From positions 5,272,001-5,336,000 of the forward strand of contig OZ076409.1 of assembly GCA_964187785.1 (NCBI GenBank): DNA of 64,000 nucleotides, written 5' to 3'. The notes under the pieces were generated by a model, which was not told where the DNA came from, ran no database searches, and worked only from the letters and a program-made list of their open reading frames with translations. Shown piece after piece: positions 11,923-41,951 of the stretch. Each line of letters opens with the position of its first letter. Positions within the stretch are counted from its first letter, which is position 1. Source of the DNA: Amphiscolops sp. MND2022 (Eukaryota). The position numbers and the translations under genes are program-made.

Positions 11923-12181
11923 ATATAATGATTATAATGGGATGGCATTTTTTCCTTTCTGGCGGCAAAAAGAAGTCTTTCAAGTCTATTTTGCTATCTG
12001 CCCGGTTGTGTTGGGATTTAATAAACTTGAGAAGATTCCGTGAATACTTTGTTTGGATTTTTATTATTTTTAGCTAAACTATTTATGAAAAATATACAAT
12101 TTAGACACAATACAAACAATCACATTGACTTTTTTATTAAGAATTACAGACGCAAAACATCGTGTACTTAAAATTAGGCTA

Positions 12182-12925
12182 TGTAACGGCAAGCTCTGGT
12201 ACAGCAATATCAACCAACTTTGCAACTTCGACATGTTTAGAAAATTTTGTCAAAAATTCGTTCAAATTTGACGTGGCACTCAAACATGCTCAAGACGAAG
12301 TACCTGCCAGAAAAAGCACCCCAAAAAAGCAGAAATCGCCGCTCGCGACGAACAAGCACCGGAGACGACTAAAGAGACGTCCCCAACGCAGACAGAACAC
12401 GGTATTGTGTCAATCTCTAGGAGATATCCATTACTACAGTAAAGGAAACCAGTGTTCCAGATGTTCGCCTGAGTATCCCTGCGGTATCCTGTGTGGCAAC
12501 TAGCGCTAGCGCTGGGAACCTGAAGTCAATTTTCATCAAATGACTCTGAACTCTTGATTTCTTGTTGTATTTTTCGATGTGGTAAATTAATACGCTCGAG
12601 AGCTGTTGTTTAACATCTGTTTATCCAATTTGGCGATTTTATCAGATTCTCCAATATTACGGTTCAACCTTCATCGATTTTCAGCCCAATTTTTAAAAGC
12701 TAGTTGAGCAGTGGTCTTGAGTCTTGCAAGATGCCTGTTACTTTTAGCAGTTACAGACTAGGACCAGGCCAGAGAGCGTCCTACAAGACGGTTCCCCCAC
12801 CTTGGGACTGGCTCCTTCGGAGGGAAAATGAGCTAGAGCCGCGGAGATCTAGGTCCCAGATTATATTCGCTGTTCTAGTTCCTCCACTCTACGTTGCGGT
12901 TCAAGCGCCAGCGCTTATCGTTACA
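12182..12925 (+). repeat. Gypsy 5' LTR (744 bp)
   Basis: Begins TGTAACGG and ends TCGTTACA (7-bp terminal inverted repeat). Matches 30346-30745 plus 52656-52999 with about four substitutions by eye. Confidence 0.96.
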
Positions 12926-12928
12926 TAG
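12731..12928 (+). CDS. Candidate LTR-encoded 65-aa peptide (MPVTFS...VPPP); second copy at 52805-53014
   Basis: Peptide motif shared with the ORF at 11724-11885, with synonymous codon differences. Confidence 0.5.
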   Translation: MPVTFSSYRLGPGQRASYKTVPPPWDWLLRRENELEPRRSRSQIIFAVLVPPLYVAVQAPALIVT

Positions 12929-12940
12929 AAACTCATTTTT

Positions 12941-12957
12941 TGGCGACCACAGAGGGA
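12941..12957 (+). promoter_or_regulatory. Primer-binding site, probably tRNA-Arg
   Basis: TGGCGACCACAGAGGGA resembles the complement of the 3' end of metazoan tRNA-Arg(TCG), TGGCGACCACGAAGGGA. It lies 15 nt after the LTR. Confidence 0.7.
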
Positions 12958-14166
12958 TCGTCTTGGGAAGCTTTCCCTAGCGGTTTTTAAAAGATCTGGC
13001 CCCCTGGTGTTCAGCGCCAAGCCCGTTTTCGACTCTGGACAGGAGAGAAGAGCAGAGTTTTACCTCTTTTTAGTCGTATTACGTCTTACTGGAACTGGGA
13101 GAGGCGTTGAACCAGAGAAAATGCCGAAGAAAACGTGTTTTCAGGTGCGAAAATGGTATTTTTGGGCATTTTAGAAGGAAATCGCTCTTTATGTGTGATG
13201 TGTTGTATACCCATCAGCGGGTACCTTTTTGCAGGTGTAGAGGACCGTAGCACGTGGCTACGGGTGTCTAACAGGTTTTTTGAGCTATTTTCAGCCATTT
13301 TATGCCATGCAAGAGGGTAACGGATGGATGGTTGACCATACTCCAGCGAGGCGAAGGAGGGGACAAATCTTGTGTTGCCTACTTCCTATTCCCATTTCTC
13401 GTGGAGACGTCCTAGAGGCATGGTTTTTGGTGGACAGCAAGTGCAACGACGACAGACGGTGCTAATGGTCCCACCCGCGTGTTTCTATCTGGTCTAGAAG
13501 TGGAGAAATAACGTGGTGAAGATGCACCCCCTAGAACCAGATGAGTCGCTCAGATGGAGTATGGTTGGCGAAAATTTTGAAAATACACCTCTTTCGATGG
13601 AGAATCGTTGGTGCAGGTCAGTGACGTTCTACCATAAATGTAACGACACCCAACGAAGTGCTTTTCTGCGAAAAAGATAGCACTTGGAGAAAAAACCTCA
13701 TTTTTGCGTTTTTTTGGTGTTTTTCTTGGTTTCGAGCACTAGTGCTCACAGAAGCCAGGAAAGCGTGGTGGAAAGTTTTGACAAAGCAGCTGCAAGGCTC
13801 GAGAAAGCCGGCACGAGGCACGAAAGGCGAAGTTGAAGCCTTTGATTGTGATAAAAGTGCCAATTTGACGCCGAAAAATGTGAAAAAAGTGGAAATTTGG
13901 CCAAAAAGGCACCCAAAATGTGAACGTACACGAGTGTGGAAGTGTAAAATGACAGTGTACGGCACTACCCCAAGTGTAGTTGACCCTCAGGATACTAATT
14001 GTAACTTTTGTAGCGGACTCAGGCAGCCTGGGGCTGATACAGTGCGAAAAACTTGTGATTTTTGGCATTTCAGAGTAGAGAAAGTGCATTAACCAAAAAC
14101 ACCCAGAGCAAAGCTTATTCGAAGAGAGCGGGTTCGAGCGCTCTCATTTTCGATTGTAGCAGCAAA

Positions 14167-14412
14167 AACGACGCATTGTGGTGAAAACCGCATGCAAAAA
14201 TTCCTTCTCAGTGCTGAGAAAAGTTGAAAAACCTTGACTTTTGGCCAGTTTCAGGAGTGCCAGAGTGCATCATTAAAACCTCTAGGGCACTCAGTGTTTT
14301 CGAGACTGGGGAGCCCGCGCGCTCCTATCTTCTGTTCTTATAATACAAACAACGCATTGTGGTGAAAACCGCATGCAAAAATTCCCGTTCAGTGCTGAAA
14401 AAAGTGGAAAAA
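14167..14412. repeat. ~65-bp direct repeat pair in the Gypsy 5' UTR
   Basis: ACGCATTGTGGTGAAAACCGCATGCAAAAATTCC...TCAGTGCTGA at ~14170 and ~14351. Confidence 0.8.
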
Positions 14413-15646
14413 CGCACTGAATTTGGTCAATTTTCCACAAAACCGGACTGTCTCTGAGCTAGGGTCGGGTCATCGATTCCTGGACCCTAGCCAAAAAGTG
14501 GTTACATTTTCGTAACCACCACAAAAATTAACGTTAGTGCCGAAAATTTGGCTAGCGTGTCGCTCACCAAAGTCGAGAAAAGCTCTCTGACGTTTCGACT
14601 TCAGAAAAGCACATAAAAGCCGAAAAATTCCAAAATTACAGGACTGTCAGTGCCTTATACCTAACGGGCACGACCAATTGAGGGTTTATCCCAGTGCTAC
14701 GGATAGTGGGGCAACACGTTAGTCCCATTTTGCCCGCCGTATCACTTTCGGAGGTGATCCTCTTGGTCAATTTGTGAAAAAAGTAGTCAAAAACAGTATT
14801 TTTTCGTGTACAACGTACGTAGTGGGTCGAAACCTCAAATAAGCGCTCGCGCTCCAATTCGACCATATCAGTGGCATTGTAGGTGCCCACAGGCATAAAC
14901 TACCAAGTTTGGTGCCGATCTGTGTGACACTTGTTGAGAAAATAGGAAAAACGTGGCACCCAAAAAGGCGTGCAAAAAGGCAGTTTTTTCTAAATTTTCC
15001 GAGTAACCCGGGCACCTTAGCCGACGGGTGGGGCTATATTGCAGCCCATCATCGTATCCTGTGCTAGTTCTTACGTTGCTGCAGAGAATTTGAGCTTGCT
15101 AGCTCTTTCCACTGGACCGCAATCTTGAAAAAGACGTGAAAAACAGTATATTTCGGTACATAGTGGTACCGCACGTCTGTACCTAGGTGAAACTGTGTAG
15201 AAGGGGCGCAACTCAAAACTGTGTTCATTTTCGTAAACCTACATGTACCTAAGATCTGCTGGCCAATTTTGGGCTGGATACGGCGCTTCCCGTGCATACC
15301 CGAGCCTGTGGAGAGTTATCGTGCGAATTTTGAAAAATCCGAAGATTCCTTGAAATCCTTCCTGTGGGTGACTGGAGACTTTTTGCCCCAAACGAAGTTG
15401 ATTTTCTAGCCCAGTGTGCTTGTGGAAAAACGCTGTGCAAATTTGAACAGCCTACAAGCTCTAGAACGTGTTTCGAAAAGTCTAGAACGCTGGATACCAC
15501 CAAAATTCTTAAGTGCTCACCGGGACGACCAAGGGATCAGCTTCGAATTGAAGACCCTGGTGCGTTCGGCGACCCAATTTGAGTCTTCCGAGTAATCGTG
15601 AGCGGTAACTCGATCGCTATTGATAAACGCGTTGGCCACCGAACCG

Positions 15647-18600: not shown

Positions 18601-21600
18601 GCTGAAATGCTATAATATCAACCACCAAGAACCCACCGGGGAAGCGCGAATAGATGAGCGTGCGTCGCTCGTTGTCCCCTTTGTGGTGCCACATGCGGCA
18701 CCTATCCCACTGCGAGGCCTGGTGGACACTGGTTTTGGAGTATCCATACTAACCTTCTCCGCCTTCAACCGGGTAGCTGCACGGACTGGAGCGGTCCTGA
18801 AACCCTATCAAATTGATTTGTACGCTGCCAATGGGAAGACAATAAAGACTTTCGGGCTGGCTGAGCAGATACGCTTCCAGTTGGGAGGGTATGAACTCGA
18901 AACCAATTTCGTCGTGGTAGATGACGCAATGGGCGTGGAGGACTTTCTATTGGGTCGAAACTTCCTCCGTTCCTACCAAGTCTTGGTAGATCTAACCTCC
19001 ATGAAGATAGTGGTGCGAGCACCAGTGAAGCCCGTCTGGCATCATGCACACACCCAGGTAGGTGATGTTTCGCTAACTACTCCCATTGCTCTGGACAGTG
19101 ACTTAGTCCTACAGCCTTTCGAGCGTACAGTGGCAAAGGCCAAACTTGTCACCAACGCGCTTGAACCATTAATCTTCCAGACCGTGGCGCTTAACGCCTC
19201 GTTGTCTGATCCCTTATTGCAAAATACCATCTTTTTAGAGGACAGCGTGGCCACTGTCAGTGAGACAGGAACACTGTATGTGAGTCTGGTAAACCTCACC
19301 AGCAACCAGCAGCGTGTACGATGTGGTGCCCACCTAGGCACGGTAGTGCCTGTGTCTCTAGTATACCAGGCTGTGCCCCAAAAGCTGGATGCTACTGCGG
19401 AAACTGACCACAAAACTGAAGCCGACAACAGTCGGGCAAATTTTGTTTATAAAGTGTACAGTGAAATGAATCTATCTACTGCTTCTGAGTTAACCTCTTC
19501 ATCTGAATTTGAGTTTTTGTCTTCTACGGATCCAAGTGAAGCGGGGCTTTCGGAGCGCGAGACTCGCAAGCGCACCGATCCCGACCTATTGGCCCCGATG
19601 CCTGGGCCCGATTCTCAATTGCAAGAAGTCAAGAAACTCTGGGGCGCTAGCGCCTGCGAGTCCTTAGACAACATTCTTAACGAGTTTGATGACCTATTCA
19701 TGAAACGCAAGGCGGATATTGGCCGCTGTACCATTGCTAAACACACCATAGAGGTAGAGCCTGAGGCTGTACCGCACCGTGAAGGTGCTCGGAGAATGTC
19801 CCCCGAAAAGGCTGAACGAGCCAACCAGGAGGTTCGGAGCTTATTGGCCTTAGGGATGATACAACCATCACTGTCCCCGTGGGCAAATGGTATCGTAATG
19901 GTAAAAAAGAAAAGCGGGGAGTTACGCTTTTGCTGTGACTTCCGACCGCTGAATGAAGTAACCATTAAGGATGCCTACCCCCTGCCCCGTATCGATGAAA
20001 GCCTGGCGCGACTGGGCAATGCAAAGATCTACACCAGCATAGACCTTGCCTGGGCTTTCTGGCAAATTCCCTTGCGAAAGGCGGACCGCCACAAAACAGC
20101 CTTTGCCTGTGAGTTGGGACTCTTTGAATGGCGAAGAATGCCATTTGGCTTGTGCAATGCATCAGCCACCTTCCAGCGAGCAATAGCGCGAGCGCTGCAA
20201 AAAATAGTCAATCGCAAAGGCAGCATGGTCATGGCATACATCGACGACATAGTTATAGCAACTGAGACTGTGGAAGATCACATGGCGCGTTTGCCCGAGG
20301 TTTTTGAATGCCTCCGCGAAGCTGGCTTCAAGATGCGCGTAGCCAAATGCGACTTCATGAAACCAGAAATCAAATATCTGGGACGCGTGGTCTCAGCAGA
20401 AGGTGTCAAACCGGACCCGAAAGCTGTTGCCAAACTGCGCGATTGGGACATCCCCCGCAACAAAACTGAAATGCAAAGTTTCCTGGGATTCGCTAATTAT
20501 TATCGCGAATTCATCCCGTGGCATGCCAAGCTGGTGGCGCCCCTCCACGCCGTTACGGGACTGAATGCCACGTTTGCATGGGGTCCTGACCAACAAAAAG
20601 CCTTCAACGAAATCAAGACAGCATTGATCGAGGCGACTGCGCTCGCGCAGCCTGATTCCGAAGGAGAGTTTGTGCTGGACACAGATGCCAGCGCTGTTGC
20701 CATTTCCGGTATCCTACATCAATGGCAAGGAGCTCCCGGAGAACGACGCCTACGACCGATCATATACGGCAGCAAGAAACTGACCACCACCCAAGCCAAA
20801 TATGGGGCACCCAAGCTGGAGATGTTTGCTGCCTACTACTTCATCCTCAACTACCACAGCTACCTTTGTCCCCGAAAGTTCACCCTGAGAGTCGACAACC
20901 AAGCCCTATCCTGGTTGAAAACCTACTCCACGGACCAAGCATTGATTGGACGTTGGATCATGACACTGGACAGGTATCACTTTCGCGTGGAACACAGACC
21001 ACGAACACAACACCGCAATGCTGATGGCTTGAGCAAACGAACCAACGATTATCGATGCCGAGAACAGCAGCTTGCGCAGCTGCCAGCTACTGGAGAGCGT
21101 TGGAACTTCCTCTCGGCCGAGGAATTCGACAACCTCCCCATAGCCCCATGGTTCGACCTGCAAGGTCGAATCATTCCAAATCATCCTGACCTACCACCGC
21201 ATCTGCAGAACTTGGAGCCTAAGGCTCCTGACCAGGCACTCCGTGTGCTTCGCCGTGTGCAACGAGCGAACAAGCGAGAACGACAGGCAAAGGCGCTAGC
21301 CGCGCCTTTACCGCCTCAGCCTCCACCCGTACTGCAAAAACACGAAGACTTCTACCCAGACTATCCTGAAGACTGGATAAATGTCACCACTGAGGCCAGC
21401 GAGGATTACCTGCTGCCAACACATGCAGTAAATGTCCCCTCGCGCACCATCTATTCTGTGACGGGAACGAGTAACGCCATGCTACAGAACTCACCTGGTG
21501 GCGTGCGCGAGTCGATCATGGCCCTCAAGGACATCGACACCGAGCTCCATGAACACACACATACCGTGCATGGGATCAAGGACTTGGTTTTAACCCAAAA

Positions 21601-23641
21601 CCGCGATGTCCATGTGCTAGCACTGAAAAAGCTCGTGCAGTGTGAATCCCTAGATAACGACGTGTTTCCCGAGAACGTGCGTGAGTTCGCACGTAATTAC
21701 TTCCGCCAGAAAAAGGATCTCTTGTTCATAAACAAGAATCATGTCCTTTGCGTGCAGTACTCCCCCACCCAACGCCCACTGCACGAACGTCCGTGCATGA
21801 TCATAATGCCTCAGCTATACCAGCACGAGATTCTGTTCCGCGCGCACGACGCAATGGGACACCAAGGTATCTCAAAGGTAGTAGCTCGAATTCAAGAGCG
21901 CCACACCTGGCCCGGCATACGGCGCAGTGTCGGTCGGTACGTCGGCCAATGCCTCACCTGCCAACAAGTACGTGACAAGCCTGGTGACGTACGATTCCAA
22001 TTGAAAAATATTCAGAGTGGCTACTTCAACGAGTTGGTCCAATATGACCACTTAAAAATCTGCCCCTCTGATAACAACAACACTGGCATTTTGGTCATCA
22101 TCGACCATTTCTCTAAATTTGCAGAAGCAGTCCCTTGTAGTCATCATGACTATGACGCAGTGACCACCTCACGATTGCTGCTGCAGAAATGGTTTGCCCG
22201 CCACGGCACCCCCACTCGCATGCAATCAGACAATGCCCCCAACCTTACTGCTGAAGTCTCTAATGAGTTTCTAAAGGCAGCTCACGTCACTAAGGTGACC
22301 TCCACTGCCGGACATCCACGAACTCAAGGCTTGGTGGAACGGCAAAACCGCACCCTCTTAACCTTGTTGCGAGTCTACTGCTCACGTCGCATGCGCGACT
22401 GGGACCAGTGCTTAGATGAAGTGATCGGTGCCTATAATTCCACCAGGCACGCCACTACAGGCTTCTCGCCCTATATGTTAACAAGGGGTGTTGAGAAAGC
22501 AATTCCCCTCACCTTTTTATACCCTGAATTTGCAGCCAAGTCCTTCGATACGCATGAAGCATACGTGGATCATGTGTTGGCTCGCCAACAAGAAATTCAC
22601 GACTTGGTCCGGCGCAACACGCACCAAGCCCAATTGCGCCAAAAACTGAAATATGATCGTGCTATCCGAGCACGAGCTTACCAGCCGGGAGAGCTCGTCT
22701 GGGTTTTTTGCCGCTACGTGCTGCAAAAAGGCTCTCCAAAATTGATGCGCGCCTGGCGTGGCCCGCACAAAATAGTGCAAGTTTTTCAAGAAGGACGTGT
22801 CTACGTATTGGACACAGGCCAAAAGGTTCATTTTGAGCGCCTGAAACCTCATAATAGTGGGCCCCTTGAGCTCGCCACCGCGCAAGCGGACAGCGGCGAA
22901 ATAGTGGTACTCATGGACCCTGACCCTGAACGCTCTGTTGAAGCAGTTGACGACGATAAGTCCCAGCCTTCATATAAAACTGAACAACTACTTTCAGAAG
23001 CATCTGACGTATCCTTGCCTTCGCGCAAGCAACATTGGATGGATACCCGTCTGCGCACAAAGTTACGTGCTGGAGGTTCCCGCATGCACTACCAGCAATT
23101 CGACTACTCAACTTCGGGCACTGACGACGAGTTGTCCGAAGTCATGCTACCGGTACCTCCTGATCCCGTTGACGCCGATCACAGGGAGCCCGAACCCCAA
23201 CTCCCTTCAGACCAATCAATATCACCTGCCCATCATCTGCCTCAACTATTCTCCGACCATGAGCGCGCGAGCTCTCCGTCACCACGGATATCCTCTCCCG
23301 AAAGACAGCCCTCCTTACTGGGCACATCGGCCCCACTACTGACAAATCCATCACTGACGAGTTTCCTCAACAACTATCCCATTTGGCCGGCCGCTCCTTC
23401 CCTTCCTCTGAAATCCGCCACTGAGGATGACGACGCTCAGTCCAATGTCCCTACTCTTCCCACAACATTGCCCGGAGCGGGGACCGCTCCTTCTTTCAAA
23501 AGGGGGAGGGGAGACCACCCAAAACGCGAAAAAGGCTGGTCAGAGCGAAGGCAAGAACGAGGAAGAAAGAAACTACAACAACAATGCCATCGAAAACAGC
23601 AATACCGACCGAGGCTTCCGAGGTCCCCCGATATCAACTGA
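15647..23641 (+). CDS. gag-pol: Gypsy Gag-Pol polyprotein (first ATG 15647; probably continues by 1-nt frameshift at ~23510 to 25002)
   Basis: CCHC knuckle CYNCGQAGHFARDC, protease LVDTG (~18725), RT YIDD (~20237), RNase H LDTDAS, integrase HDAMGH..CLTC and D-D-E core (YDHL, SDNA, VERQN). Confidence 0.96.
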   Translation: MAVSHTGSQSWVTIEGSCFSDDMSDEVTIEQQRKEELAAMLPPSENSSISANSRRTEQWVDETCHDRANEVEEGWPNSNMTDELAAEEGCSRAPPAGERQLGSQTDMEQDLTYVGGMSYARQRGLGTTRGPTRVCAYGKHKKVRPPLLQVGEPRQEASRVRSMTGSLASSQRSSVYKAALLDAQAETQRALAGLASTRAECNEQHLAIVENIKVMQTTMRESLQVSDQLRTAQNVQNARVDTLGHRIGEMNDTLMSRELRVETQINDLSNQMHTVLNAIDVMRRERSLPRQPSTSGGVRNGGPVRISEPTCPSQVVKSELPSVLKPSTSRPAVPAPRKDEGVAGNLVMATPEAERKPARGQMRGHHDSAESSMPSATQCTTRDQGVDPMSTIYLDSSVEVDLSNTKATLGSQTEGATFATAPISMSGPDSLYWTADLSAEHGLPSGTPCASSTRKKDEIADLSIQATLGSHDRTREGEANADEGEAISPEQLRFTAAISKAMSKELAPLLAGRDLAQARPNVYRGSKDGSIDGWILIMQRYLKRTQTKVSAEDQAWSIIGHLEGEARNYIINKAESERDTPEKVFELLSSRFGAGGNRMQVRQAFQSRIQQEKEDWMQYLDALEGLRSQGFPQEAITTKRYEILQRFMDGVRDPALRRELAIVYASEVFLTEPPTVESLRFTTRQLQRNRPKPNQFPQPYDPRLAMRSRPHPFAPLPPNKMVLPQGVMPPPPASNAPPNPVAVQPATRLPVGACYNCGQAGHFARDCPARDQARKPVAAPEPEGVKVTAEDITDGVLESYPSIHQCAHCGVYDHVDVPCGEHSQAPRPNDELAYNRWAEVESAGVAAHTVPLEDDRVLMLHPAEPPAFHPPLTVTCGTKQIQTCLEPTTFDPQGRTLISIHLMLAAEQARRPTLTLAKLWVELSVLYNRMELPRPKHWHVPGESETLTTYSPVPVCATMDGVDVKFEACVVVDVFPPGLCLGPQELKCYNINHQEPTGEARIDERASLVVPFVVPHAAPIPLRGLVDTGFGVSILTFSAFNRVAARTGAVLKPYQIDLYAANGKTIKTFGLAEQIRFQLGGYELETNFVVVDDAMGVEDFLLGRNFLRSYQVLVDLTSMKIVVRAPVKPVWHHAHTQVGDVSLTTPIALDSDLVLQPFERTVAKAKLVTNALEPLIFQTVALNASLSDPLLQNTIFLEDSVATVSETGTLYVSLVNLTSNQQRVRCGAHLGTVVPVSLVYQAVPQKLDATAETDHKTEADNSRANFVYKVYSEMNLSTASELTSSSEFEFLSSTDPSEAGLSERETRKRTDPDLLAPMPGPDSQLQEVKKLWGASACESLDNILNEFDDLFMKRKADIGRCTIAKHTIEVEPEAVPHREGARRMSPEKAERANQEVRSLLALGMIQPSLSPWANGIVMVKKKSGELRFCCDFRPLNEVTIKDAYPLPRIDESLARLGNAKIYTSIDLAWAFWQIPLRKADRHKTAFACELGLFEWRRMPFGLCNASATFQRAIARALQKIVNRKGSMVMAYIDDIVIATETVEDHMARLPEVFECLREAGFKMRVAKCDFMKPEIKYLGRVVSAEGVKPDPKAVAKLRDWDIPRNKTEMQSFLGFANYYREFIPWHAKLVAPLHAVTGLNATFAWGPDQQKAFNEIKTALIEATALAQPDSEGEFVLDTDASAVAISGILHQWQGAPGERRLRPIIYGSKKLTTTQAKYGAPKLEMFAAYYFILNYHSYLCPRKFTLRVDNQALSWLKTYSTDQALIGRWIMTLDRYHFRVEHRPRTQHRNADGLSKRTNDYRCREQQLAQLPATGERWNFLSAEEFDNLPIAPWFDLQGRIIPNHPDLPPHLQNLEPKAPDQALRVLRRVQRANKRERQAKALAAPLPPQPPPVLQKHEDFYPDYPEDWINVTTEASEDYLLPTHAVNVPSRTIYSVTGTSNAMLQNSPGGVRESIMALKDIDTELHEHTHTVHGIKDLVLTQNRDVHVLALKKLVQCESLDNDVFPENVREFARNYFRQKKDLLFINKNHVLCVQYSPTQRPLHERPCMIIMPQLYQHEILFRAHDAMGHQGISKVVARIQERHTWPGIRRSVGRYVGQCLTCQQVRDKPGDVRFQLKNIQSGYFNELVQYDHLKICPSDNNNTGILVIIDHFSKFAEAVPCSHHDYDAVTTSRLLLQKWFARHGTPTRMQSDNAPNLTAEVSNEFLKAAHVTKVTSTAGHPRTQGLVERQNRTLLTLLRVYCSRRMRDWDQCLDEVIGAYNSTRHATTGFSPYMLTRGVEKAIPLTFLYPEFAAKSFDTHEAYVDHVLARQQEIHDLVRRNTHQAQLRQKLKYDRAIRARAYQPGELVWVFCRYVLQKGSPKLMRAWRGPHKIVQVFQEGRVYVLDTGQKVHFERLKPHNSGPLELATAQADSGEIVVLMDPDPERSVEAVDDDKSQPSYKTEQLLSEASDVSLPSRKQHWMDTRLRTKLRAGGSRMHYQQFDYSTSGTDDELSEVMLPVPPDPVDADHREPEPQLPSDQSISPAHHLPQLFSDHERASSPSPRISSPERQPSLLGTSAPLLTNPSLTSFLNNYPIWPAAPSLPLKSATEDDDAQSNVPTLPTTLPGAGTAPSFKRGRGDHPKREKGWSERRQERGRKKLQQQCHRKQQYRPRLPRSPDIN

Positions 23642-25002
23642 GAAGCAGACGGCAGCCACGCTATAAGTGCGGGACCTGTGGGCTGCGAGACTGTGTTTGC
23701 TTGCTAGCCGTCAATGAGAACCAGAGGGTTCCCACTGGAGCCCGGGGAGTCCCTCCAGAGCGGGGAGAAAATCTAGTACATCGCCTTACGGTGAGAGCTG
23801 AAAAAACTTATTCCTCCCTGGAACGACACGGAGACCATCCCATGGATACTATCCTGGAGAAGTTATCACTACCTGGAGTAGCGAAGGCCCCATGTCCTCG
23901 ATTCAAGGAGTGGACTAGCGATGGAAAAGGGTTAGAGTTCACCCTCGCAACGGTGATGCCCCCAGTGCCCAGCAATATTGCTTTTGGCCCCTTCAACTTC
24001 GAGCGGGAGCCTGTGCAAATGGTCCGATGCATCACCGCTGATCTTCTCTGTGACAAATACGGAATTCACGTGGATCCGGGCGGAGTATACAGCCCAGCGC
24101 CGCACTGGTGGTTGCTGGTCACTGCTCCACGAGTGGAGACAATAGTGGAACCATTGCACCTGCTGTCCTGCTTGGAAGGTCTGAGGACCCTCACTACCGC
24201 GGACTTGATACTTTGCTTCCACATCATAGACTGGTATCGTGGCAAAGTAAAATTTGCGTGGTGGTTGGAGCTGATCATCACTTGTTTCCCCAATTATCCT
24301 CGCATTAGATTGCTGGATGAGTGGACTCATACTTTTGAGATTCCGCTTCCTCCGAAAGCCGTTTTGAGCACCCTAGACACATGGGTTAGGGCGGGCAGTG
24401 ATAACCGAGCGATGCCACGCTCGGTATGGCAAGACCTGGCTGCAATCCAGGGGCGTACGCCCCGCGTATGCTTGCCTGCCGACAATGGGCCGGGGAGAGA
24501 GATCATCTACCCGGGAATCCTGCATCCAGCCCCAACAGAACACCTCTCATATGATGTGACTGATTTTCTTCAAGTAAAGGGTGACATAGTGTTGGCGTGT
24601 CCCGCTGACCTAGAGACCAACTCAGCTGCCCTACGGTACGTGCTAGGAGAATGCGGCAAGGAGAATGTATTCTCCTTACGTCCTAAGGTGGGGGAGATTC
24701 TCACCATTCCTCCCGATATCAACCCAAACCCCAATCAGAGTATTCACTTGTTAATAATCAGAGCAAACCAGCGTGCGCCGCTGCTCGCAGACGACTACCT
24801 ACGTTGTTTGACGCACTTGATACAGCGTTTGATGGAGAAGGGATCCACGAGGGTCCACCTACCCATACTGGATCCAGAGCGACCCGCCCTCTCACTGGTA
24901 AACTTATACCATACCCTAACGAATTTGCTGGAGGGTACTGGTATTCACGTGGTGCTGCATAACCGCGTGTATGTGTCCATTCTGAACATAGGGCTGGAAT
25001 AG
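23584..25002 (+). CDS. C-terminal extension of Pol: CxxC motif plus two degenerate macrodomain (TARG1/Poa1-like) repeats
   Basis: Its frame is open back to ~23510, where adding one G gives KRGRGRPPK. Motifs MVRCITADL/WWLLVTAP and IVLACPADL/IHLLIIR/RVHLPIL parallel the macrodomain motifs LAHCISAD/IYYLITK/LAMPRIG. Confidence 0.65.
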   Translation: MPSKTAIPTEASEVPRYQLRSRRQPRYKCGTCGLRDCVCLLAVNENQRVPTGARGVPPERGENLVHRLTVRAEKTYSSLERHGDHPMDTILEKLSLPGVAKAPCPRFKEWTSDGKGLEFTLATVMPPVPSNIAFGPFNFEREPVQMVRCITADLLCDKYGIHVDPGGVYSPAPHWWLLVTAPRVETIVEPLHLLSCLEGLRTLTTADLILCFHIIDWYRGKVKFAWWLELIITCFPNYPRIRLLDEWTHTFEIPLPPKAVLSTLDTWVRAGSDNRAMPRSVWQDLAAIQGRTPRVCLPADNGPGREIIYPGILHPAPTEHLSYDVTDFLQVKGDIVLACPADLETNSAALRYVLGECGKENVFSLRPKVGEILTIPPDINPNPNQSIHLLIIRANQRAPLLADDYLRCLTHLIQRLMEKGSTRVHLPILDPERPALSLVNLYHTLTNLLEGTGIHVVLHNRVYVSILNIGLE

Positions 25003-25246
25003 CCCACCCAAAACATTTTTGTTGCCCCCTTATTCAATTTACCCACCCGATAATCGTTATGCCTGGGAGGAAGTCTCGAACTTTCCCATGAAATAATTAC
25101 ATTGTAACGTAGCGTTAGATAACTTCTATCTTTGTGTTCTAATTAGTTAGTTGAACTACAATTTACACTTGTTGCGGTTCCCCTATGGAACCATCTTTGC
25201 TGCTGAGTGATGAGCCTTAAGCTCTCCCCACAATGCACATGGTAAG

Positions 25247-25267
25247 CCTAACAGTAATCCTTTTTAG
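25247..25267 (+). promoter_or_regulatory. Candidate branch point and splice acceptor for an ORF2 subgenomic mRNA
   Basis: CTAAC...TCCTTTTTAG ends 12 nt before the ORF2 ATG at 25280. Confidence 0.5.
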
Positions 25268-25279
25268 ACCTATGATATT

Positions 25280-28200
25280 ATGGCTTATTACCCCAACAAC
25301 ACGGTACCTATTTCCACGACGGGACCTCACGCCAATAGGACTCAAGAATTGCCTGCGCGAGCGCAGAGGACTAATCAAGTCCAATACGTAGAAGAGCGAT
25401 TGAGGAACGGCCTCTCACCGTTAGCGGTAGCGGGCGTGGCCGCCCTACTCACCCAACTAGACACAATGCAGACGCTGCCTGGCGTATCCGTGTCTCTAGT
25501 GACGGAAGTAGCCGGTTACCGTCGCACCCTAACCTGCCAAAACAATGCGTGGGATGGCCACGATCTGACGCACCAGTTCCTGGATGAACGGTCCACCACA
25601 ATGCTCGGGCCCAGCCAAGGCACGAGATTCGAGCAAGAAGCCTCACTGTGTATGGTGCCTGCCAGCGTAGCAACAATGCCTCCTCCTCAGATGGTCGCAC
25701 TGCCCCCACCAGCGCCAAATCCAGTACCAATGACGCCAACTTATTCCGGTTCGCCTGCCTTTGGGACGTCATATCGAGCGCCACACATGGTACTGCAAAC
25801 CACTACTAATGCACCAGTCTCTGATCGGGAGCCCTCGGGGTCCCGGTTGCCACCCATACCCAACCCTAGAGCTGATGGGAAGGAGTGCCAGCGAACAGGC
25901 CGTAATTGTGGCTTTGCAAGCGGTGGCGAACTATCCCAACTCCACCGATTTCGTCCGTGCCGTGGAGCAGAGAATCCCTGGATTAGCCACGTATCTGCAA
26001 GCTGCTGCTCAGCCCGCGGGCTGTGACCCTCCTCCTCCCCTAGTCGAAACGGCATCTATGGATATGGAAATTGTCGCTGGACCGAGTAACAGCGCAAGCG
26101 CTGCCTCTGGTACACGAGAAGAAGCGGGGAGAAAGCGGCTGACTGAAGAAACTGTCTCAGTTACCCCAGCTGGCTCGGTAACCGAGAGCCCAACTAGTCG
26201 TCCCCCTCCCGACAAGCGCGCTGATGTACCTCGGTCCCAGCTGAAGAGTGTGGTTATCCCTAGGCCCCCGTACCGGGTAGGTCATCTAGGCCGAAGCGCT
26301 CCTCAAATGTCTTTAGCAGACGCGATCGAACAGTATGGAGATCCGGATGCAGGCTCGGAAGTGAGCTCTGTGCCCTCGGGCACCAATCCAATAGATATGT
26401 CCCTGGAGATACCTGAGACGGTGGAGGAAGCCCATCCTTCAGCCTTTCTCCCTCCATCTGACGACGTATCCGGCTCAGTAGTCACCAATGATAGCAAACG
26501 CATTTGGATGGCGGCTGAGCATCTCTACCCCAGTCAATGCGCTATCAAGAAAAGGACCCCTCCAACTGAAACGGAGCAAAAGGAGATCAACCGGACCACG
26601 ATACCGGCGCAAGTCACGCGTTCGCCCAGCCCCCGTGACGCAGACATGTCGGAGCAGGCTTGGGAACAGCGTGCTCGAGAGCAGCTGCCTATGACAACCA
26701 ACGATTACATGGCGCCCCTGCAACACAATATCACTGAGCAATTCCCCGCACGGTATGTGTTGCGAGAAGGTGAGACATGGGAGGCGAACGCCCGTTACGC
26801 TCGCAACCTGAGATCCTTGAAACCCCTATTGAAAGCAGCTCTGCAGCGTGCGCGCTACTGCATGGCAGTTGATTCCACTTGCGGAAGTGACCTCCCTATT
26901 GACAATTTAATGCCTGACGTGCTGGTGCTAACTATGCCCCTGTCTCGCTTCGCTGAGGTCGCTGAGATGGTCGGAGCCATATACGATCCAAACTTAAGAG
27001 GATCACAAAAGGAACCACCCCCACAGCGAGTGATCTTCGCCAATCTCCTGGATCACATGGCTTGCGAAGGATTGCTGCATGACCTGGACGCACTAATGTC
27101 CAATGTCCGACGACTTGGAGACATTGCTGCCCTGGTAAATGAGGTGGTCGGTGCAATGGAACGTGCCGCAGGGATCCTTCGGGGTCGTCTGGGAGCGCTC
27201 GCGCTCTTTGTATCCCCACCGGGATTCATGTATTGGCCACGAAGTCTGCAGCAGTTCGTCTACATTCTGCTGGAGGTGTGCAAGGCGCGCAGAGTCGAAT
27301 TCGCCATCTGTGCACCGAACTTGCGCGTGGACCGAGAGGACCTGCGCCCAGATACCTTATCGTATCCAGCCTTCTTTGCCGCCGTATCTAGAGCGCTTGT
27401 GGCTATAGAACGCTCGGGAAACGCCCAGCTAACCATTGACGATGCTATCCTCTATGATTATGGAATGCGGATGGGCAGACTGGCCTTTGACCTTGACGGG
27501 AACCGCACTGCCCGAGAATCTAATGTAACCGAACGAGAGGCTGTTCGCCGGTACAATTGGCTAGTGCGAAAAGATAAAGAAATCCCAGTGCGCGCAGAAT
27601 TAGCCGATCTGACAAAACAAATTGGTGCATGGCCTGCAGCGCGCACTGTCGAGAGAACAATTCCTCAGATCCACTTCGCCTCGGGAATCGAGCCCGTGAA
27701 GCTGCCTGTAGGGCTGCGATGTATCGTAGCAATAGAAGCAACAAATCTGAAAGCAGAAGTCGACGCCGCAGCCACAACTTATGCTTATTGGTACCAGACT
27801 AGGTTTGCCACTAGAACTCTGGCAGAAGTAGCTCGAGAGCTCAATTGTCCATTGGAAGCCTTCTGTACCAGTCTTGGTCTAGGATGGAACCTAGAGGTAC
27901 TAACTGCTGAGTTCTCGCTGACCTCTACGCAAACGGACAAGCTGTTAGAAACAATTGGAGAGACAACCGTCGGAGAAATACTAGCGCTCGCGCTAACGAT
28001 GGGCCCAACCAAGTTCGTAGCCGGACCACTGGCCTTGTTAGCCGACATGGTAATTGCCTGCGACCTCACCGTGTTCTACAGCTACTTGGTCCTGGCACAA
28101 GGACAACTACGCAGTCTGACCCGTTGGGGACACTTGATGACTTCCAAAGACCAGCAAGACTATTCCGCACAACTGGAGCGCATGCGTGCGTCAATCCAGC

Positions 28201-29588
28201 ACTGGCTATACTCCACCCTGGTGTTCGCCTCCGGCCTATTCGTGGGCGTAGACCAATCTCAACCACTACATAACTCCGACCAGCAGATCTCCCGGGAAAC
28301 GGCAGGATTCCCCATGCCGCAGCAGATTGCAGATCTCACCCTGGCTGAAGTAGAAGACTTTGTGGCAGCAATGGCTCCTGTCTTGGCCCCTATCTTTGGC
28401 GCAGTGGGCGTGTGCCGATGCCCAACAAAACCATTGGCAACAGCCGTCCAAGTGCACATGGTCTCCTTCAGTACCTATCTGCGAGGCCGTCCTTCACTGG
28501 CGTATCCAAGGGTAATACATGCAGTGCTGAGTGGTGAGGTGCCGCATGGGTACACGACCATAAAATCCGAAAGAGAGTTGGAGGAGAACTTGATGGGCTT
28601 GCTGCGCGCGCGCACCAGGAAAGCATGTCCTCTACCCCGAGAGCATGGACCTGTGAACTGGTATTCCGCACCTCTCAGTCTGGAAGGGGTTCCCTTTAGG
28701 TTCCCCTGGAGTCAAGAGTTCGTGAGGAAGGCGATTCGCGCCAGCACTAGTGCTGGTCCACCCGTGGATCCTTTATACTGCTTCAAATGCATCGCCTTCC
28801 CAAACCGCGATTGGAAGGAGCCGTTAGGTTGGCCCAGGGCAAAACCCGTTGGACGCGCCCCAGAGGTGTTCAACCGCCAAATCCAACACTTGGAGTCAGC
28901 CCAGATCCCAGGATGGATTGAAGGCGCTGCTCAGATTAGGCAGAGGAATCTCCAATCCCGCGTCATTCCATTCCCCAGGAAGTCGGCGTGGAAGCCTACG
29001 GGAAAGATGACTATGTCTGGAGATATGTCCATCGTCCAGCATGATGAGATAAATTCCGTGTTGGGCTCAACAGAACGAGCGAGATGGGAAGAGTACTGTC
29101 TGGAGTAGGAGATTGCAAGCTTCCCTAAATGGAAGAGAGCTTGCGAGCTCTGGAGCCAATCTGGATGGATCTCACGCCGTGTAGCACTAGCGGTAGAAGG
29201 TAGAGCAGAGATAGCGAGACAACAGGCGTTCGCGCCTACCATGCTCGCACCAACGATGGTGATGTCCTTGGATCGGCCCATCTCTCAACCGATCACCATT
29301 AACCTTCCAACCCATGACTTGGAGCCAGACCCCGTTGGCCCGTCTTCGTCGCGAACGAGCCCTCAGTCCTCGCAGCAGCAGTCCGGAGAGCACACTGCCG
29401 AATTGACTCCCAATGCAGCACTAGTGCAGCCTATTGCCGAGTTGTCGCTCCCCGAAAGTCCGTCGGACTCTGAAACAGTTGCCACAGAAGTTTCTCCCCG
29501 ACGTCGAGCGTCAGTGTCGACTGATAACCCAGAACAGAACCTAGATGATGCCACTAAAGAGCGGACCCGACGCAGTTCAGCTCAATAA
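25280..29588 (+). pseudogene. Gypsy ORF2 in env position (~1435 aa reconstructed) with an SGNH/GDSL-hydrolase-like domain; one frameshift (~25860) and one in-frame TAG (29106)
   Basis: ORFs 25280-26026 and 25761-29108 join as PPIP/TLELMGR by removing one base. ORF 29241-29588 is in frame after the TAG with no other stop. Motifs MAVDS, VLTMP, RVIFANLLDH and DLRP follow the SGNH block order. Confidence 0.7.
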
Positions 29589-30328
29589 ACCCAGCTGCTA
29601 ATGGGAGCGTTCGCGCTCCCTATACCCTTATAAACTGCCAACAAACAGTGCCTCAAAACTACTCATCCAGAACGGTGCTATAGTACAAAGTGCAATTTTT
29701 GTTCTTAGTTATGGTTATATAGTTAGTGTACCATTAGTGTTGCACTGGGTGTACGGCCAATAGAGTACGCCTACCCCAGTGGCTTGAAAGACCAAGCAGA
29801 AAGAAAAGAAAACTATTGTTCAAAAAACTATCATTTTTGTTGCGCACCGTTCGCGGTGTTTTTGAGTTGTCACAATCAAAAGAAGTCTTATCCCTCTTGA
29901 TTGCGTTTCTTTCTAGTCTAGTGTTCTTCATCAATCTGGTTGTTCACCGTAAGAGCCCCCAAAGCTCTAAAAAAGTTTTTAATCGCCTGAAATGAAATGG
30001 AGACTTGTAGTCTCAAATGGTAAGGAAAAGAAATTTTAGCTGACTTTGGTCGCAAAAAGTTTTTTACACAAGTTGACTGCCCAAACGAATTTTAAACCGG
30101 CTGAAAACTGTAGCTCTCGAGCTGGTGCTAAAACCTCGTTCATGTTTTGTACGAATAGCTAGGCAGTAAGTTCTTTTTTTTTCGTGAAAAAACTGCAAAG
30201 TCGACCAAAATTGTTGCCGAAAAACAAGGACTCGTCCTTGTTCTCCGATGTGTGGATGATGGTTCCCAGCCGTCACTGTGATGCAGTTCCCAGACGATCC
30301 AGACGCCGCTTGCCAGGGACGACAAGCC

Positions 30329-30345
30329 AGGAGCCTGGGGAGTGA
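30329..30345 (+). promoter_or_regulatory. Polypurine tract of the Gypsy element
   Basis: AGGAGCCTGGGGAGTGA immediately precedes the TG of the 3' LTR at 30346. Confidence 0.65.
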
Positions 30346-30745
30346 TGTAACGGCAAGCTCTGGTACAGCAATATCAACCAACTTTGCAACTTCGCCATGA
30401 TTAGAAAATTTTGTCAAAAATTCGTTCAAATTTGACGTGGCACTCAAACATGCTCAAGACGAAGTACCTGCCAGAAAAAGCACCCCAAAAAAGCAGAAAT
30501 CGCCGCTCGCGACGAACAAGCACCGGAGACGACTAAAGAGACGTCCCCAACGCAGACAGAACACGGTATTGTGTCAATCTCTAGGAGATATCCATTACTA
30601 CAGTAAAGGAAACCAGTGTTCCAGATGTTCGCCTGAGTATCCCTGCGGTATCCTGTGTGGCAACTAGCGCTAGCGCTGGGAACCTGAAGTCAATTTTCAT
30701 CAAATGACTCTGAACTCTTGATTTCTTGTTGTATTTTTTGATGTG
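30346..30745 (+). repeat. Gypsy 3' LTR, first 400 bp
   Basis: Near-identical to 12182-12581 and ends in GATGTG (left copy of the Polinton TSD). Confidence 0.95.
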
Positions 30746-30879
30746 AGTAGTGTATATAATCGTATTTGACGCCAGCGCGAAGGGCGCAAGCTGGCTCACT
30801 TCGTTCGCCCCCTTGCTTCGCCATTCGCTTCGCTCATGGCTACTTCGCGCTAACGTCAAATACGATTATATACACTACT
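30746..30879. repeat. Left Polinton terminus (TIR that is itself a fold-back palindrome)
   Basis: The ~36-nt terminal arm recurs inverted at ~30843-30879. Confidence 0.9.
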
Positions 30880-31010
30880 TCTTTACCATCCTTACACCTA
30901 TCGTTAAATACGATTTCTTACACTACTTTGGTAATACTCTACTAACCATGTTTTAGAATAAAGCTGAAATTCTTTTGAACTGCTAAATTTCTATGAATTT
31001 CACTCTGTAA

Positions 31011-31209
31011 ATGTAAATATTGATTTTCAAAAGAAATTTTTTCAGACTGCTAATTAGTTGAGAAGGTAGATGTAAATATTGATTTTCAAAAGAAATTCTT
31101 TCAGACTGCTAATTAGTTGAGAAGGTAGATGTAAATATTGATTTTCAAACGAAATTCTTCCAGACTGCCAATTAGTTTAGAAGGTAGATGTAAATATTGA
31201 TTTTCAAAA
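31011..31209. repeat. 59-bp tandem repeat, ~3.4 copies
   Basis: ATGTAAATATTGATTTTCAAA at 31011, 31070, 31129 and 31188. Confidence 0.9.
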
Positions 31210-31445
31210 CAATTAAAAAGAAACGAGAAAAACTTGAGCACTGAAGTGAATTTAATTACACCAAAAATCAATAAAAACACCCAACATTTTCAAAAATTAT
31301 CTCCACTTCTACTGGGTTTTAAGAGATGGGGTTTTCACCATTGTGATCCTCTCTTCCATACGAGTAAAAAGAGATGTCGATGAGCAAAATCCGCCGAGTA
31401 GTTAACAAAACCCATCACCAAACGCATTCATTTGAAACAAGATAA

Positions 31446-31775
31446 AATCAAAAAATCTAATTTGACCATGCTGGTTATTTGACCATGCTAGTTATTTGAG
31501 CATGTGCGATTTTTGAATTACGCGGGCTCCTAGGTATGGATAAGCGGATAGCAAACCATTGCACGAATCAAAAAATCTAATTTGACCATGCTAGTTATTT
31601 GAGCATGTGCGATTTTTGAATTACGCGGGCTCCTAGGTATGGATAAGCGGATAGCAAACCATTGCACGAATCAAAAAATCTAATTTGACCATGCTAGTTA
31701 TTTGAGCATGTGCGATTTTTGAATTACGCGCGCTCCTAGGTATGGATAGGTGGATAGCAAACCATTGCATGAATC
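31446..31775. repeat. ~103-bp tandem repeat, 3 copies
   Basis: AATCAAAAAATCTAATTTGACCATGC...GCAAACCATTGCA at 31446, 31566 and 31669. Confidence 0.9.
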
Positions 31776-31833
31776 CTCCAAACATTCATTTGTATTATTA
31801 ATTACAACTCAGTCGCCACACTCTCTTATCAAC

Positions 31834-33959: not shown

Positions 33960-35126
33960 ATGGATCTATCAAACTTTGTAACTTATGATAAAAAGGAATC
34001 TCTTTTGCTGAATATTGCTAAATCTAATCAAGAAATTGTTGAAAATACTCATTCGAAACCACAAGAAACTCTAGAATTTAAAATGACTAAACAAAAAGAA
34101 TCTTTTTCATTCGATGTTCCTCTCTAACTAAATGAAAATTGGATGATGGGAGTAACAAGTTTAGAAGTCTATAATACAGTTTATAATATCACTAATAGCA
34201 ATAACAAACTAGAGATTGTTCTGAATGATCAACAACTCAAAGAACTTAACCTTGACAGTGAATTATTAGTGTCTGTCGAAGATTTATATAAGGCCTATTT
34301 TGTTAAACCCTATAAGTATAATGAATTTATAGAAAAGGTTAATAATCTTATAACTAATAGTTATTCTAAAAAGAAGAAACTTACTAGAGTAGATTTTACC
34401 TATTTAACAAAGATAATTGAATCACTTAATCAAATTAATAAAGAACGCCTCAATCAAGAAAGAATATTTCAAGCATACAAAGACCACCTAAAACTTGAAA
34501 AAATAAATTGGGACGAAATAAATTGGGAGGAAATAAATTTGGATGAAATAAACCAAGAAGAAATAAACCAAATAAATCAAATAAATTTACCCCCCTTTGA
34601 AATTATTGAAAACGATTTCTTTGGAATACAACTAACACCAGGAGTTTATGAACTAGTTGATATAAATAATGCAATTAAACAAAAAATTCATGAAAGTGAT
34701 TATGATTTTAAAATTGATATAATACCCGACACAATATCAATGAAATCAGTTTTAACAACCTCAAACTCTATTCATTTTAACTCCAGACTTAACATTCTTT
34801 TGGGATTTACAAACAAGGATTACCCACCCGGAACTCACACTTCAGAGAAACCAGTTATGATAACGACCACCGATAAAGTTCACCTGAAGTGCGACTGCGT
34901 AGATGGTTCAATTGTTAATGGAATTAGAGAACAAATCCTGTTTAGTTTTAATCTTAGTGCTCGTCCGGGATATAAAATTATAAATAATCCGACTACTGTT
35001 TTGTACAAAAAGATAAACAAAACAAGATTAGACCAGATACAATTTTTTCTTGAAGACTCCAACCACAACCCAGTAGATTTCAACAACGAGACACTCACAT
35101 TCACAATTCAAATCATCAAGATTTAA
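33960..35126 (+). pseudogene. Minor capsid protein (penton) with in-frame TAA at 34125
   Basis: TAAATG start at 33960, in frame with 34143. The C-terminus VHLKCDCVDGSIVNG...PGYKI...VDFNNE is typical of Polinton pentons. Confidence 0.82.
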
Positions 35127-35135
35127 TATAAATAA

Positions 35136-35537
35136 ATGAGCTTCAATAAATTTAAAACTAAGTCTTATTGTGTTGGTGGTAAACACTATTCTGCTACAAC
35201 TAATAGTCGAGGAGATATTTCTCAAAATAAAAAAACTGGCATGCCAGTTAAACTCCTACGTGGTGTGTGTGTAACATGTAAAAGAAATAAATCCCTTATA
35301 GTATCTGATCAAACTATTTCAGCCGAGGGATTGGGTGACTTCTTTAAACATATTGGCAAAGCTGCAAAGAATGTTGGAAAGAAAATACTCAATAATCCTG
35401 GTAGAGCACTAGAACTCGCAGCTAATATTGGTACCGCAGCAGCAAGTAAAAATCCACGAATGATAGCTGCAACTGCTCCTGATATTATAAAATTTGTTCA
35501 TCAAGGAAAAGGCTTATATTTGGGAAAAATTCATTAA
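35136..35537 (+). CDS. Small basic virion-type protein: Zn-ribbon-like N-terminus plus amphipathic helix
   Basis: YCVGGKH...CVTCKR; AEGLGDFFKHIGKAAKNVGKKIL; C-terminal GKGL. Confidence 0.75.
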   Translation: MSFNKFKTKSYCVGGKHYSATTNSRGDISQNKKTGMPVKLLRGVCVTCKRNKSLIVSDQTISAEGLGDFFKHIGKAAKNVGKKILNNPGRALELAANIGTAAASKNPRMIAATAPDIIKFVHQGKGLYLGKIH

Positions 35538-35552
35538 ATTTATGGTTAATAA

Positions 35553-37269: not shown

Positions 37270-37299
37270 TTATTTAGTAAAATTCCGTTGTAAAATGAA

Positions 37300-37505
37300 T
37301 CACTAAGACGATTTTTTGTCACTAAGACCCACCTCTTAGTGAATAAGAAACACTAAGAATCACTAAGAGTCACTAAGACCCACCTCTTAGTGAATAAGAA
37401 ACACTAAGAATCACTAAGAGTCACTAAGACCCACCTCTTAGTGAATAAGAAACACTAAGAATCACTAAGAGTCACTAAGAGTCACTAAGACCCAACACTT
37501 AGTGA
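37300..37505. repeat. 51-bp tandem repeat built from CACTAAGA units
   Basis: Units at 37320, 37371 and 37422, plus a variant at ~37483. Each unit contains the hairpin CACTAAGA-CCCACC-TCTTAGTG. Confidence 0.9.
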
Positions 37506-37540
37506 TAAAAATACCACTTTCAACCATTCTAAATTATTAA

Positions 37541-38392: not shown

Positions 38393-38412
38393 TTATGCTA
38401 AAATAAATAAGA

Positions 38413-39102: not shown

Positions 39103-39106
39103 ATAA

Positions 39107-39643: not shown

Positions 39644-39701
39644 CATTATTTAGTAAAAACAATATCAGTATAAATTTTAAATCATGATTTTTTGTATATA
39701 A

Positions 39702-41920: not shown

Positions 41921-41951
41921 AAAAACAATTGAATAAAAATTTATATAGTAA

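Follow-up and report, generated by a model that had tools for sequence, protein, structure and literature searches.

What does an LTR (long terminal repeat) retrotransposon carry in the position of its envelope gene when the gene found there encodes something else? This question is raised by a stretch of 64,000 nucleotides (nt) from Amphiscolops sp. MND2022 (contig OZ076409.1 of assembly GCA_964187785.1, positions 5,272,001 to 5,336,000, forward strand), termed here the window, in whose own numbering all coordinates are given. The window contains an 18.6-kb Ty3/Gypsy LTR retrotransposon that harbours, downstream of pol and in the env position, a second long open reading frame (ORF), ORF2. An earlier note on this DNA had proposed that ORF2 encodes no envelope protein and contains a catalytically dead domain resembling SGNH hydrolases. 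We find that ORF2 is a genuine, old and selected gene of a clade of large Ty3/Gypsy elements and that it is not Env-like. How far the likeness to SGNH hydrolases extends, and what such a domain might do for a retrotransposon, is examined below.

ORF2, its genomic copies and its lineages

In the window, ORF2 is interrupted twice. Three open frames cover it (25268-26026, 25734-29108 and 29109-29588), corresponding to three pieces on the forward strand: a first piece running from the ATG to an extra base (25280..25867), a second (25868..29105) followed directly by an in-frame TAG (29106..29108), and a third that runs to the stop codon shared with other copies (29109..29588). Compared with an uninterrupted copy, the window ORF2 has one extra base at ~25867, no other insertion or deletion, and 60 mismatches over 4309 columns; uninterrupted copies have a sense codon where the window has the TAG. 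The reading of the three pieces as a single gene of 1435 residues is thereby borne out, with the TAG at the place first reported and the frameshift at ~25867, where ~25860 had been estimated.

To place this copy among its relatives, the genome (1.07 Gb, 1929 contigs) was searched in six frames. This gave 5200 first-look candidates, 41 of which were scored and proved 95-100% identical to the query. Twenty of the 41 places were retrieved, namely those without an internal stop and with a frame of at least 1437 amino acids. ORF2 is uninterrupted in 19 of the 41 best-scoring copies, with 1439-1440 codons from stop to stop and 1435-1436 amino acids from the Met; the twentieth retrieved copy (L003) switches frame at both ends. 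Over the 171 pairs formed by the 19 uninterrupted copies, the ratio of non-synonymous to synonymous divergence (dN/dS, NG86) is 0.126, with a dN of 0.0136 and a dS of 0.108. By region, it is lowest (0.09) at residues 480-760 and 1000-1300 and highest (0.21) in the C-terminal tail. Choosing uninterrupted copies excludes stops and frameshifts, and should not alone push dN/dS this low. An intact and selected frame among family copies, which the earlier note had named as a test of its reading, is therefore what the 19 frames and their dN/dS of 0.13 provide.

Two further ORF2 lineages are present in the same genome, one (L027) at 74% identity and the other (L026, L028-L030) at 30% identity over residues 461-1132. 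Both retain ORF2 frames of 1427-1451 codons, and in both ORF2 is located 180-290 nt downstream of a frame that extends pol and that we call X. In the window, X is a 523-codon frame (~500 amino acids, 23431..25002, forward strand) lying between integrase and ORF2. The earlier account of the element overlooked X; given this long frame after integrase, ORF2 follows a pol extension and not integrase directly. In most genomic copies X is an in-frame continuation of pol, giving open frames of up to 3132 amino acids. The window copy has a one-base length difference at ~23507 that shifts X out of the pol frame, a difference also seen in a subfamily (L024 and L025) and not in L021-L023. Pfam finds no family for X. 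In the ESM Atlas, X gives a weak lead to macro-domain proteins, at a score of 0.88, under the 0.9 line.

X is conserved, at 39% identity, even in the most distant lineage of this genome, and its divergence parallels that of ORF2, with X at 81% in the lineage where ORF2 is at 74% and at 39% in the one where ORF2 is at 30%. Because ORF2 and X diverge in step in both lineages, ORF2 is old in the clade and not a recent capture. The distant lineages are stronger evidence of selection than dN/dS among the 19 copies.

Relatives are also found outside this genome. A word-indexed protein search at E ≤ 0.001 returned 22 proteins, the least similar at 44% identity; all come from ENA assemblies and none has a Pfam domain. 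In an exhaustive HMMER search, E ≤ 0.001 was reached by 528 cluster representatives, 1e-10 by 320 and 1e-30 by 105; these are mostly fragments, and their identities go as low as 27%. Pattern scans based on a family alignment (A4) gave 34 pattern matches in IMG/VR viral contigs, 15 in GTDB prokaryotes (one genome per species) and 279 in JGI metagenome contigs, none of which was confirmed. One family member (P0157), encoded on a contig of 816 nt, has been entered as a hypothetical protein under a metagenome-assembled genome of Bacteroidota; it is likely to be eukaryotic DNA mis-binned into a bacterial genome.

No account of this ORF2 family was found in the literature searched, Repbase entries and supplements lying outside that search, and a paper on env-carrying Gypsy elements (PMC13524379) makes no mention of esterase, SGNH or hydrolase. 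The family is abundant, its candidate matches in a single genome of 1.07 Gb running into the thousands; it is also old, uninterrupted in many copies and invisible to standard annotation. Without a family description, annotation pipelines will label ORF2 frames as hypothetical host genes.

Fold and residues of the alpha/beta domain

The ORF2 protein has a five-part layout: a Pro/Ser-rich N-terminal third, an alpha/beta domain, a helical domain, a segment reading PIFG...RYP, and a less ordered helical tail. When residues 500-1330 were modelled with AlphaFold from a 114-row alignment, the mean predicted local distance difference test score (pLDDT) was 66.5 and the predicted template modelling score (pTM) 0.50, with two confident parts. 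The first, an alpha/beta part (model 50-260, protein ~549-759), has blocks mostly at pLDDT 85-97, and the second, a helical part (model 305-485, protein ~804-984), has blocks at 90-96; the rest is weakly predicted helix.

The alpha/beta part belongs to the SGNH-hydrolase-like domain, which spans residues ~520-760 (26838..27560, forward strand). Modelled alone, this domain reached a pLDDT of 73.2 and a pTM of 0.73, and the model is a three-layer alpha/beta/alpha structure with five parallel strands that can be superposed on solved SGNH members. A structure search independent of Foldseek was run over 48,161 chains and its top 50 rows were judged by title. For the domain model, 34 of these 50 rows were esterases, lipases, GDSL/SGNH proteins, acetylhydrolases or peptidoglycan O-acetyltransferases, and 3 were clearly other folds; the whole-core model gave the same picture. 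Small esterases aligned over ~85% of their own length. With Foldseek, the few high-probability rows obtained for the large model were GDSL/SGNH proteins, none at E ≤ 0.001.

Several results count against this interpretation. With the domain model, Foldseek was weak (best E 0.01, best target TM-score 0.48). The first strand, which bears the Asp-Ser pair, was predicted at a pLDDT of 44-49; once low-confidence regions are trimmed, the second strand is where many alignments begin, which leaves some doubt about the register of block I. In a weak pairwise alignment (E 0.06) to P0300, a Gypsy polyprotein described below, Asn588 falls at the Gly, and not at the Asn, of the GxND motif. Among 51 family members, none matches the GDSL Pfam families even at E ≤ 10. 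When the domain profile was compared by hhalign with nine canonical GDSL ORFs of the same genome (alignment A6, in which GDS, G, GTND and D-x-x-H are present), the probability was 1.8% and the E value 0.027. At E ≤ 0.01, a search with the domain profile returned 159 proteins; among the best 120 of these, Pfam domains are absent throughout and no bridge to annotated esterases was found.

Could the SGNH likeness then be that of a generic three-layer alpha/beta sandwich, the domain representing another or a new superfamily and its motifs lining up by coincidence? We consider this unlikely, if a serious alternative. A generic sandwich of the Rossmann or flavodoxin type would be expected to draw far commoner families, instead of a list filled by esterases, lipases and GDSL proteins with 3 clearly foreign rows, and the extent over which small esterases align also speaks against it. 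So does the sole hhalign alignment obtained, which sets the D-S of the family on the G-D-S of block I and its S-P-P-G strand on the corresponding strand. On the strength of the models, we hold that the fold of the domain is probably SGNH-like, and common descent with SGNH hydrolases is plausible. Judged by the usual sequence criteria, the domain would not be counted as a member of the SGNH/GDSL family. The SGNH domain of the earlier note thus stands as an alpha/beta fold at the place proposed, with GDSL/SGNH proteins as its nearest solved structures, and falls as a sequence-level assignment.

A genome scan with PF13472 (Lipase_GDSL_2) gave 39 matches, none of them at the ORF2 copies located. 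These matches, at least 39 in number (loci L031-L060), are mostly multi-copy frames of ~300 amino acids with intact GDS, GTND and D-x-x-H; they probably represent an ORF1 of the esterase type from non-LTR retrotransposons.

The four motif sites that had been compared with SGNH blocks I, II, III and V are at 26859-26876, 26925-26939, 27021-27056 and 27339-27365, within the range first reported. Residues were counted at these sites over 112 family hits, the rows of which are not independent and include many fragments. At block I, V-D-S-T follows the first strand, with Asp531 in 65 of 68 rows and Ser532 in 63 of 68; the preceding Gly is absent. The block II position reads T-M-P-L-S and has no conserved Gly, while Pro553 is kept in 71 of 75. 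After strand 3, A-N-L-L-D-H contains Asn588 (72/74), Asp591 (73/74) and His592 (69/74), at a spacing unlike that of the G-x-N-D of block III. After strand 5, the family has A-P-N-L-R-V ... D-L-R-P, in which the block V Asp-x-x-His is absent. Where the block V His is expected, Arg689 is conserved (71/81) and His occurs in 2 rows only, which makes the earlier reading of an Arg at the His position a reasonable one. A further motif, D-D-A-x-x-x-D-(H/Y)-G, is also conserved, and the Asp-Ser, Asn...Asp, A-P-N-L-R and D-D-A motifs are all retained in the 30%-identity lineages.

Lacking the Gly of block II and the Asp-x-x-His of block V, and with Arg in the His position, the domain, as judged from these residues, cannot act as a textbook SGNH hydrolase. 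A dead enzyme would be compatible with its near-invariant Ser and conserved polar cluster, but no more so than a ligand-binding domain or one with a non-standard active site. With most of the catalytic set replaced and the serine kept, ORF2 offers a natural case that could separate binding from catalysis.

Outside the alpha/beta domain, ORF2 adds ~1200 conserved residues without assigned fold or function to the accessory genes of retrotransposons. In the first 500 residues, Pro, Ser, Thr, Gly, Gln and Asn make up a share of 0.43-0.44, and two conserved islands are found at ~30-110 and ~205-260. The conserved all-helical domain (residues ~804-984, 27690..28232, forward strand) is at the high pLDDT given above over most of its length and, searched as part of the larger model, gave no Foldseek match at E ≤ 0.001. 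Pfam has no family for ORF2 of any lineage, a sequence profile of the family had no PDB match at E ≤ 10, the ESM Atlas gave no usable match for residues 500-1330, and no Foldseek match reached E ≤ 0.001 for the 500-1330 model (PDB, BFVD) or for the domain model (PDB). Two statements of the earlier note agree with these searches: no known Env was matched by Pfam, by Foldseek on BFVD with the 500-1330 model or by PDB sequence profiles, and the long helical remainder belongs to no family recognised by AlphaFold modelling and Foldseek. As to hydrophobicity, the claim that an N-terminal signal peptide is missing is right, the first 30 residues being hydrophilic and without a hydrophobic core, but two hydrophobic peaks had been overlooked. 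In 19-residue Kyte-Doolittle windows, values above 1.5 occur at residues 900-939 (peak 1.93), within the folded helical domain, and at 1024-1046 (peak 2.06), and none occurs before residue 900. The second peak is the conserved segment PIFG...RYP (residues ~1024-1046, 28350..28418, forward strand), of which columns P538, I539, F540, G541, R547, Y548 and P549 are invariant in alignment A4.

Possible roles of ORF2 and its known parallels

What, then, might ORF2 do? The reading we favour, to which we would give slightly better than even chances as a whole, is that ORF2 is a selected non-Env accessory gene with a module for a lipid or acyl ligand, that its product is membrane-directing, and that it is expressed from a spliced or subgenomic RNA. 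The domain would serve as a ligand-handling module for a lipid or an acyl group, whether by binding alone or with a non-standard active site, and with the hydrophobic helical part it may bring particles or RNA-protein complexes to cellular membranes. A membrane role of this kind has been proposed for the esterase ORF1 of L2/CR1 elements and for the GDSL ORF3 found in rotifer LTR elements, and it is by this analogy only that we advance lipid or membrane binding and particle trafficking.

For expression, a subgenomic RNA is probable, either spliced or started internally. A spacer of 277 nt separates X from the ORF2 ATG (25280), and contains a conserved non-coding block (25101..25200, forward strand) with a mean pairwise distance of 0.020 among the 19 copies, against 0.090 and 0.063 in the adjoining spacer. 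The block is thus ~5x more conserved than ORF2 synonymous sites (0.020 against a dS of 0.108). It has no Rfam match, and folding of the spacer (25095-25285) gave an ordinary fold energy (z -0.08); the block could act as a promoter or as a signal for splicing or for translation. Just upstream of ORF2, the branch point and acceptor described by the earlier note are present as a putative splice acceptor, read from the sequence as a CTAAC resembling a branch point, a run of pyrimidines and an AG (25246..25267, forward strand). This stretch is moderately conserved, with a distance of 0.060 over 25235-25270 among the 19 copies.

Other roles were weighed against these data. The esterase-like domain might be an RNA-binding pseudo-enzyme like the OSK domain of Oskar, with ORF2 handling the export, packaging or localisation of element RNA in a manner comparable to CERV of the C. 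elegans element Cer1. We think this decidedly unlikely: in the same structure lists, dozens of true esterases score at least as well as OSK, basic and acidic residues have equal shares in the domain (0.13 each), and Ser532, which an RNA-binding surface would not need, is retained. No sequence similarity of ORF2 to CERV or Oskar turned up, and none was sought. The retained serine might instead be read as that of a working enzyme. In that case ORF2 would act on membrane lipids through Ser532, the Asn/Asp-His residues and Arg689 and, with its hydrophobic helical part, would allow particles to move across or between cells independently of an envelope; this strikes us as improbable.

Still harder to credit is a membrane-inserted substitute for Env, internally or tail-anchored, that directly mediates particle release or cell-to-cell transfer. 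The gene is in the env position, both hydrophobic windows exceed the Kyte-Doolittle value of 1.5 and the motif at 1024-1046 is invariant across lineages, but an N-terminal signal peptide is absent by hydrophobicity, the 900-939 stretch belongs to a helical domain that is folded with confidence (pLDDT >90) and looks soluble, and neither Pfam nor, for residues 500-1330, BFVD reveals any likeness to fusion glycoproteins. The last alternative, that ORF2 is non-functional and its long frame kept merely through the youth of the copies, can be set aside for practical purposes. An open frame could indeed last a while in copies that are 95-98% identical; the alternative is contradicted by a dN/dS of 0.13 reached at a dS of 0.108, and by the persistence of frames of 1427-1451 codons in lineages at only 30% identity.

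Our preferred reading of ORF2, as an accessory gene with a ligand-handling module, has its closest parallel in rotifers. According to the available part of the report on bdelloid rotifer LTR elements (PMC5408684), those in the clades Vesta and Juno have a GDSL esterase/lipase gene, ORF3, in the env position. In the portions available of that paper and of a second one (PMC6431247), the GDSL genes of these LTR elements also occur in Athena and Terminon elements. ORF3 and ORF2 are alike in being a non-envelope third gene after pol in a Gypsy-like LTR element and in having an SGNH-type or, for ORF2, a probably SGNH-like fold, and the authors, in the text available, propose a role at membranes for ORF3 (PMC5408684). 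As described there, however, ORF3 is recognisable by HHpred and has its invariant S, G, N and H all intact (PMC5408684), whereas no sequence method recognises the ORF2 domain, its Gly and His are missing, and it is part of a 1435-residue protein. The earlier note had spoken of an undescribed Gypsy lineage. In the literature searched we found no description of the ORF2 family, but an SGNH/GDSL gene in the env position of an LTR element had already been published for the rotifers (PMC5408684). The novelty here lies in how far the domain has diverged, in its having lost the Gly and His while keeping the Ser, and in the large conserved remainder that is not esterase.

The idea of membrane targeting itself has its source in the esterase ORF1p of L2/CR1 elements which, according to the part of the report available, is active and binds phospholipids and liposomes, and not oligo(A) RNA (PMC3905857). 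ZfL2-1 ORF1p (PDB 4c1b) resembles ORF2 as a retroelement-borne esterase fold, and differs in belonging to a non-LTR element class, in being an active enzyme and in having canonical motifs (PMC3905857). The structural match between the ORF2 domain and 4c1b is weak (Foldseek E 0.1, probability 0.25). The ~300-residue canonical GDSL frames of the genome studied here also differ from ORF2, being detected by Pfam where ORF2 is not. An SGNH ORF of unproven function is further described, in the accessible part of a preprint, for Ngaro-like tyrosine-recombinase retroelements (bioRxiv 10.1101/2021.08.05.455354). To judge from that part, it is likewise an extra ORF downstream of the enzymatic genes, but it belongs to another retroelement order, and domain searches recognise its domain, which is canonical.

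Two further comparisons involve proteins that are not retroelement esterases. The OSK domain of Drosophila Oskar (PDB 5a4a) is part of a host germ-plasm protein; unlike OSK, ORF2 has kept the block I Ser. CERV, from the Gypsy element Cer1, is a non-Env regulator made from a spliced mRNA in the available account (PMC10309623), which makes it, like ORF2, a non-Env accessory protein downstream of pol in a Ty3/Gypsy element (PMC10309623). Its role in nuclear export of genomic RNA is, in that account, experimentally established (PMC10309623), whereas ORF2 is known here from sequence and models.

Nearer to the element studied here, the Gypsy polyprotein P0300 has 55% identity to its reverse transcriptase (RT) region and carries a near-canonical GDSL domain after integrase, in which GDS, GTND and DGIH are visible and which Pfam scores at 30.0 bits against a cut-off of 32.9. 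This near-canonical domain indicates that esterase capture recurs near this clade. Close to its truncated C-terminus, P0300 is weakly like ORF2 residues 545-602, with G-I-N-D facing N-L-L-D (BLAST E 0.06, a lead only); a hidden Markov model of the ORF2 family gave no significant match to the C-terminus of P0300 (i-E 3.3). Several retroelement classes have acquired esterase-fold genes.

The element and its surroundings

The element is bounded by a pair of LTRs on the forward strand, a 5' LTR at 12181..12584 and a 3' LTR at 30345..30749, which are 99.0% identical over 405 aligned columns (404/405 nt). Matches of other genomic copies begin at 12181/12182, and a TG at 12182 opens the LTR. On inspection by eye, the element ends showed no clear target-site duplication or CA terminus. 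The G+C content of the element is 52-56%, against 29-40% in the surrounding AT-rich DNA. The earlier note had called this Gypsy element giant; 18.6 kb is large, yet it is under the 20-kb internal-region threshold used for that term in the available part of PMC6431247.

Between the 5' LTR and the gag ATG lies a non-coding leader of ~3 kb (12585..15646, forward strand) without a long frame. It belongs to the element, since at least 35 other genomic copies have it in collinear form at 93-98% identity, and contains a 98-nt direct repeat (14135-14232 and 14316-14413, 81% alike). A leader of this size is unusually long; it was found in all full-length copies examined. The gag-pol frame follows (15602-23641, first ATG 15647, forward strand) and contains a CCHC knuckle, aspartic protease, RT, RNase H and integrase. 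Both its domain order (protease, RT, RNase H, integrase) and the LTRs on its two flanks are those of a Gypsy element, and Pfam matches RVT_1 (1.4e-34), RT_RNaseH_2 (2.4e-22), Integrase_H2C2 (2.9e-15), rve (3.4e-8) and zf-CCHC (1.7e-7). Downstream of ORF2, a 3' untranslated region (29589..30344, forward strand), read from the sequence, ends in a purine-rich run that abuts the 3' LTR. No Rfam family reached its gathering score in a scan of the whole element.

Tandem repeats, with units of 59 nt and 103 nt in three copies each, follow the 3' LTR at a distance of a few hundred bases (31007-31212 and 31477-31785). Further downstream, a run of same-strand open frames (34128-43573, forward strand) is embedded in DNA of 29-31% G+C. 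One of its frames (39702-40928) has a Pfam double jelly roll-like domain (E 1.4e-19), and this match suggests that the run is a Maverick/Polinton-like or other virus-like insertion. On the reverse strand, an open frame of 1461 amino acids (44394-48776) contains DUF1759 (E 6.1e-18) and DUF5641 (E 7.5e-14), a combination that we take to be typical of BEL/Pao-type LTR retrotransposon polyproteins.

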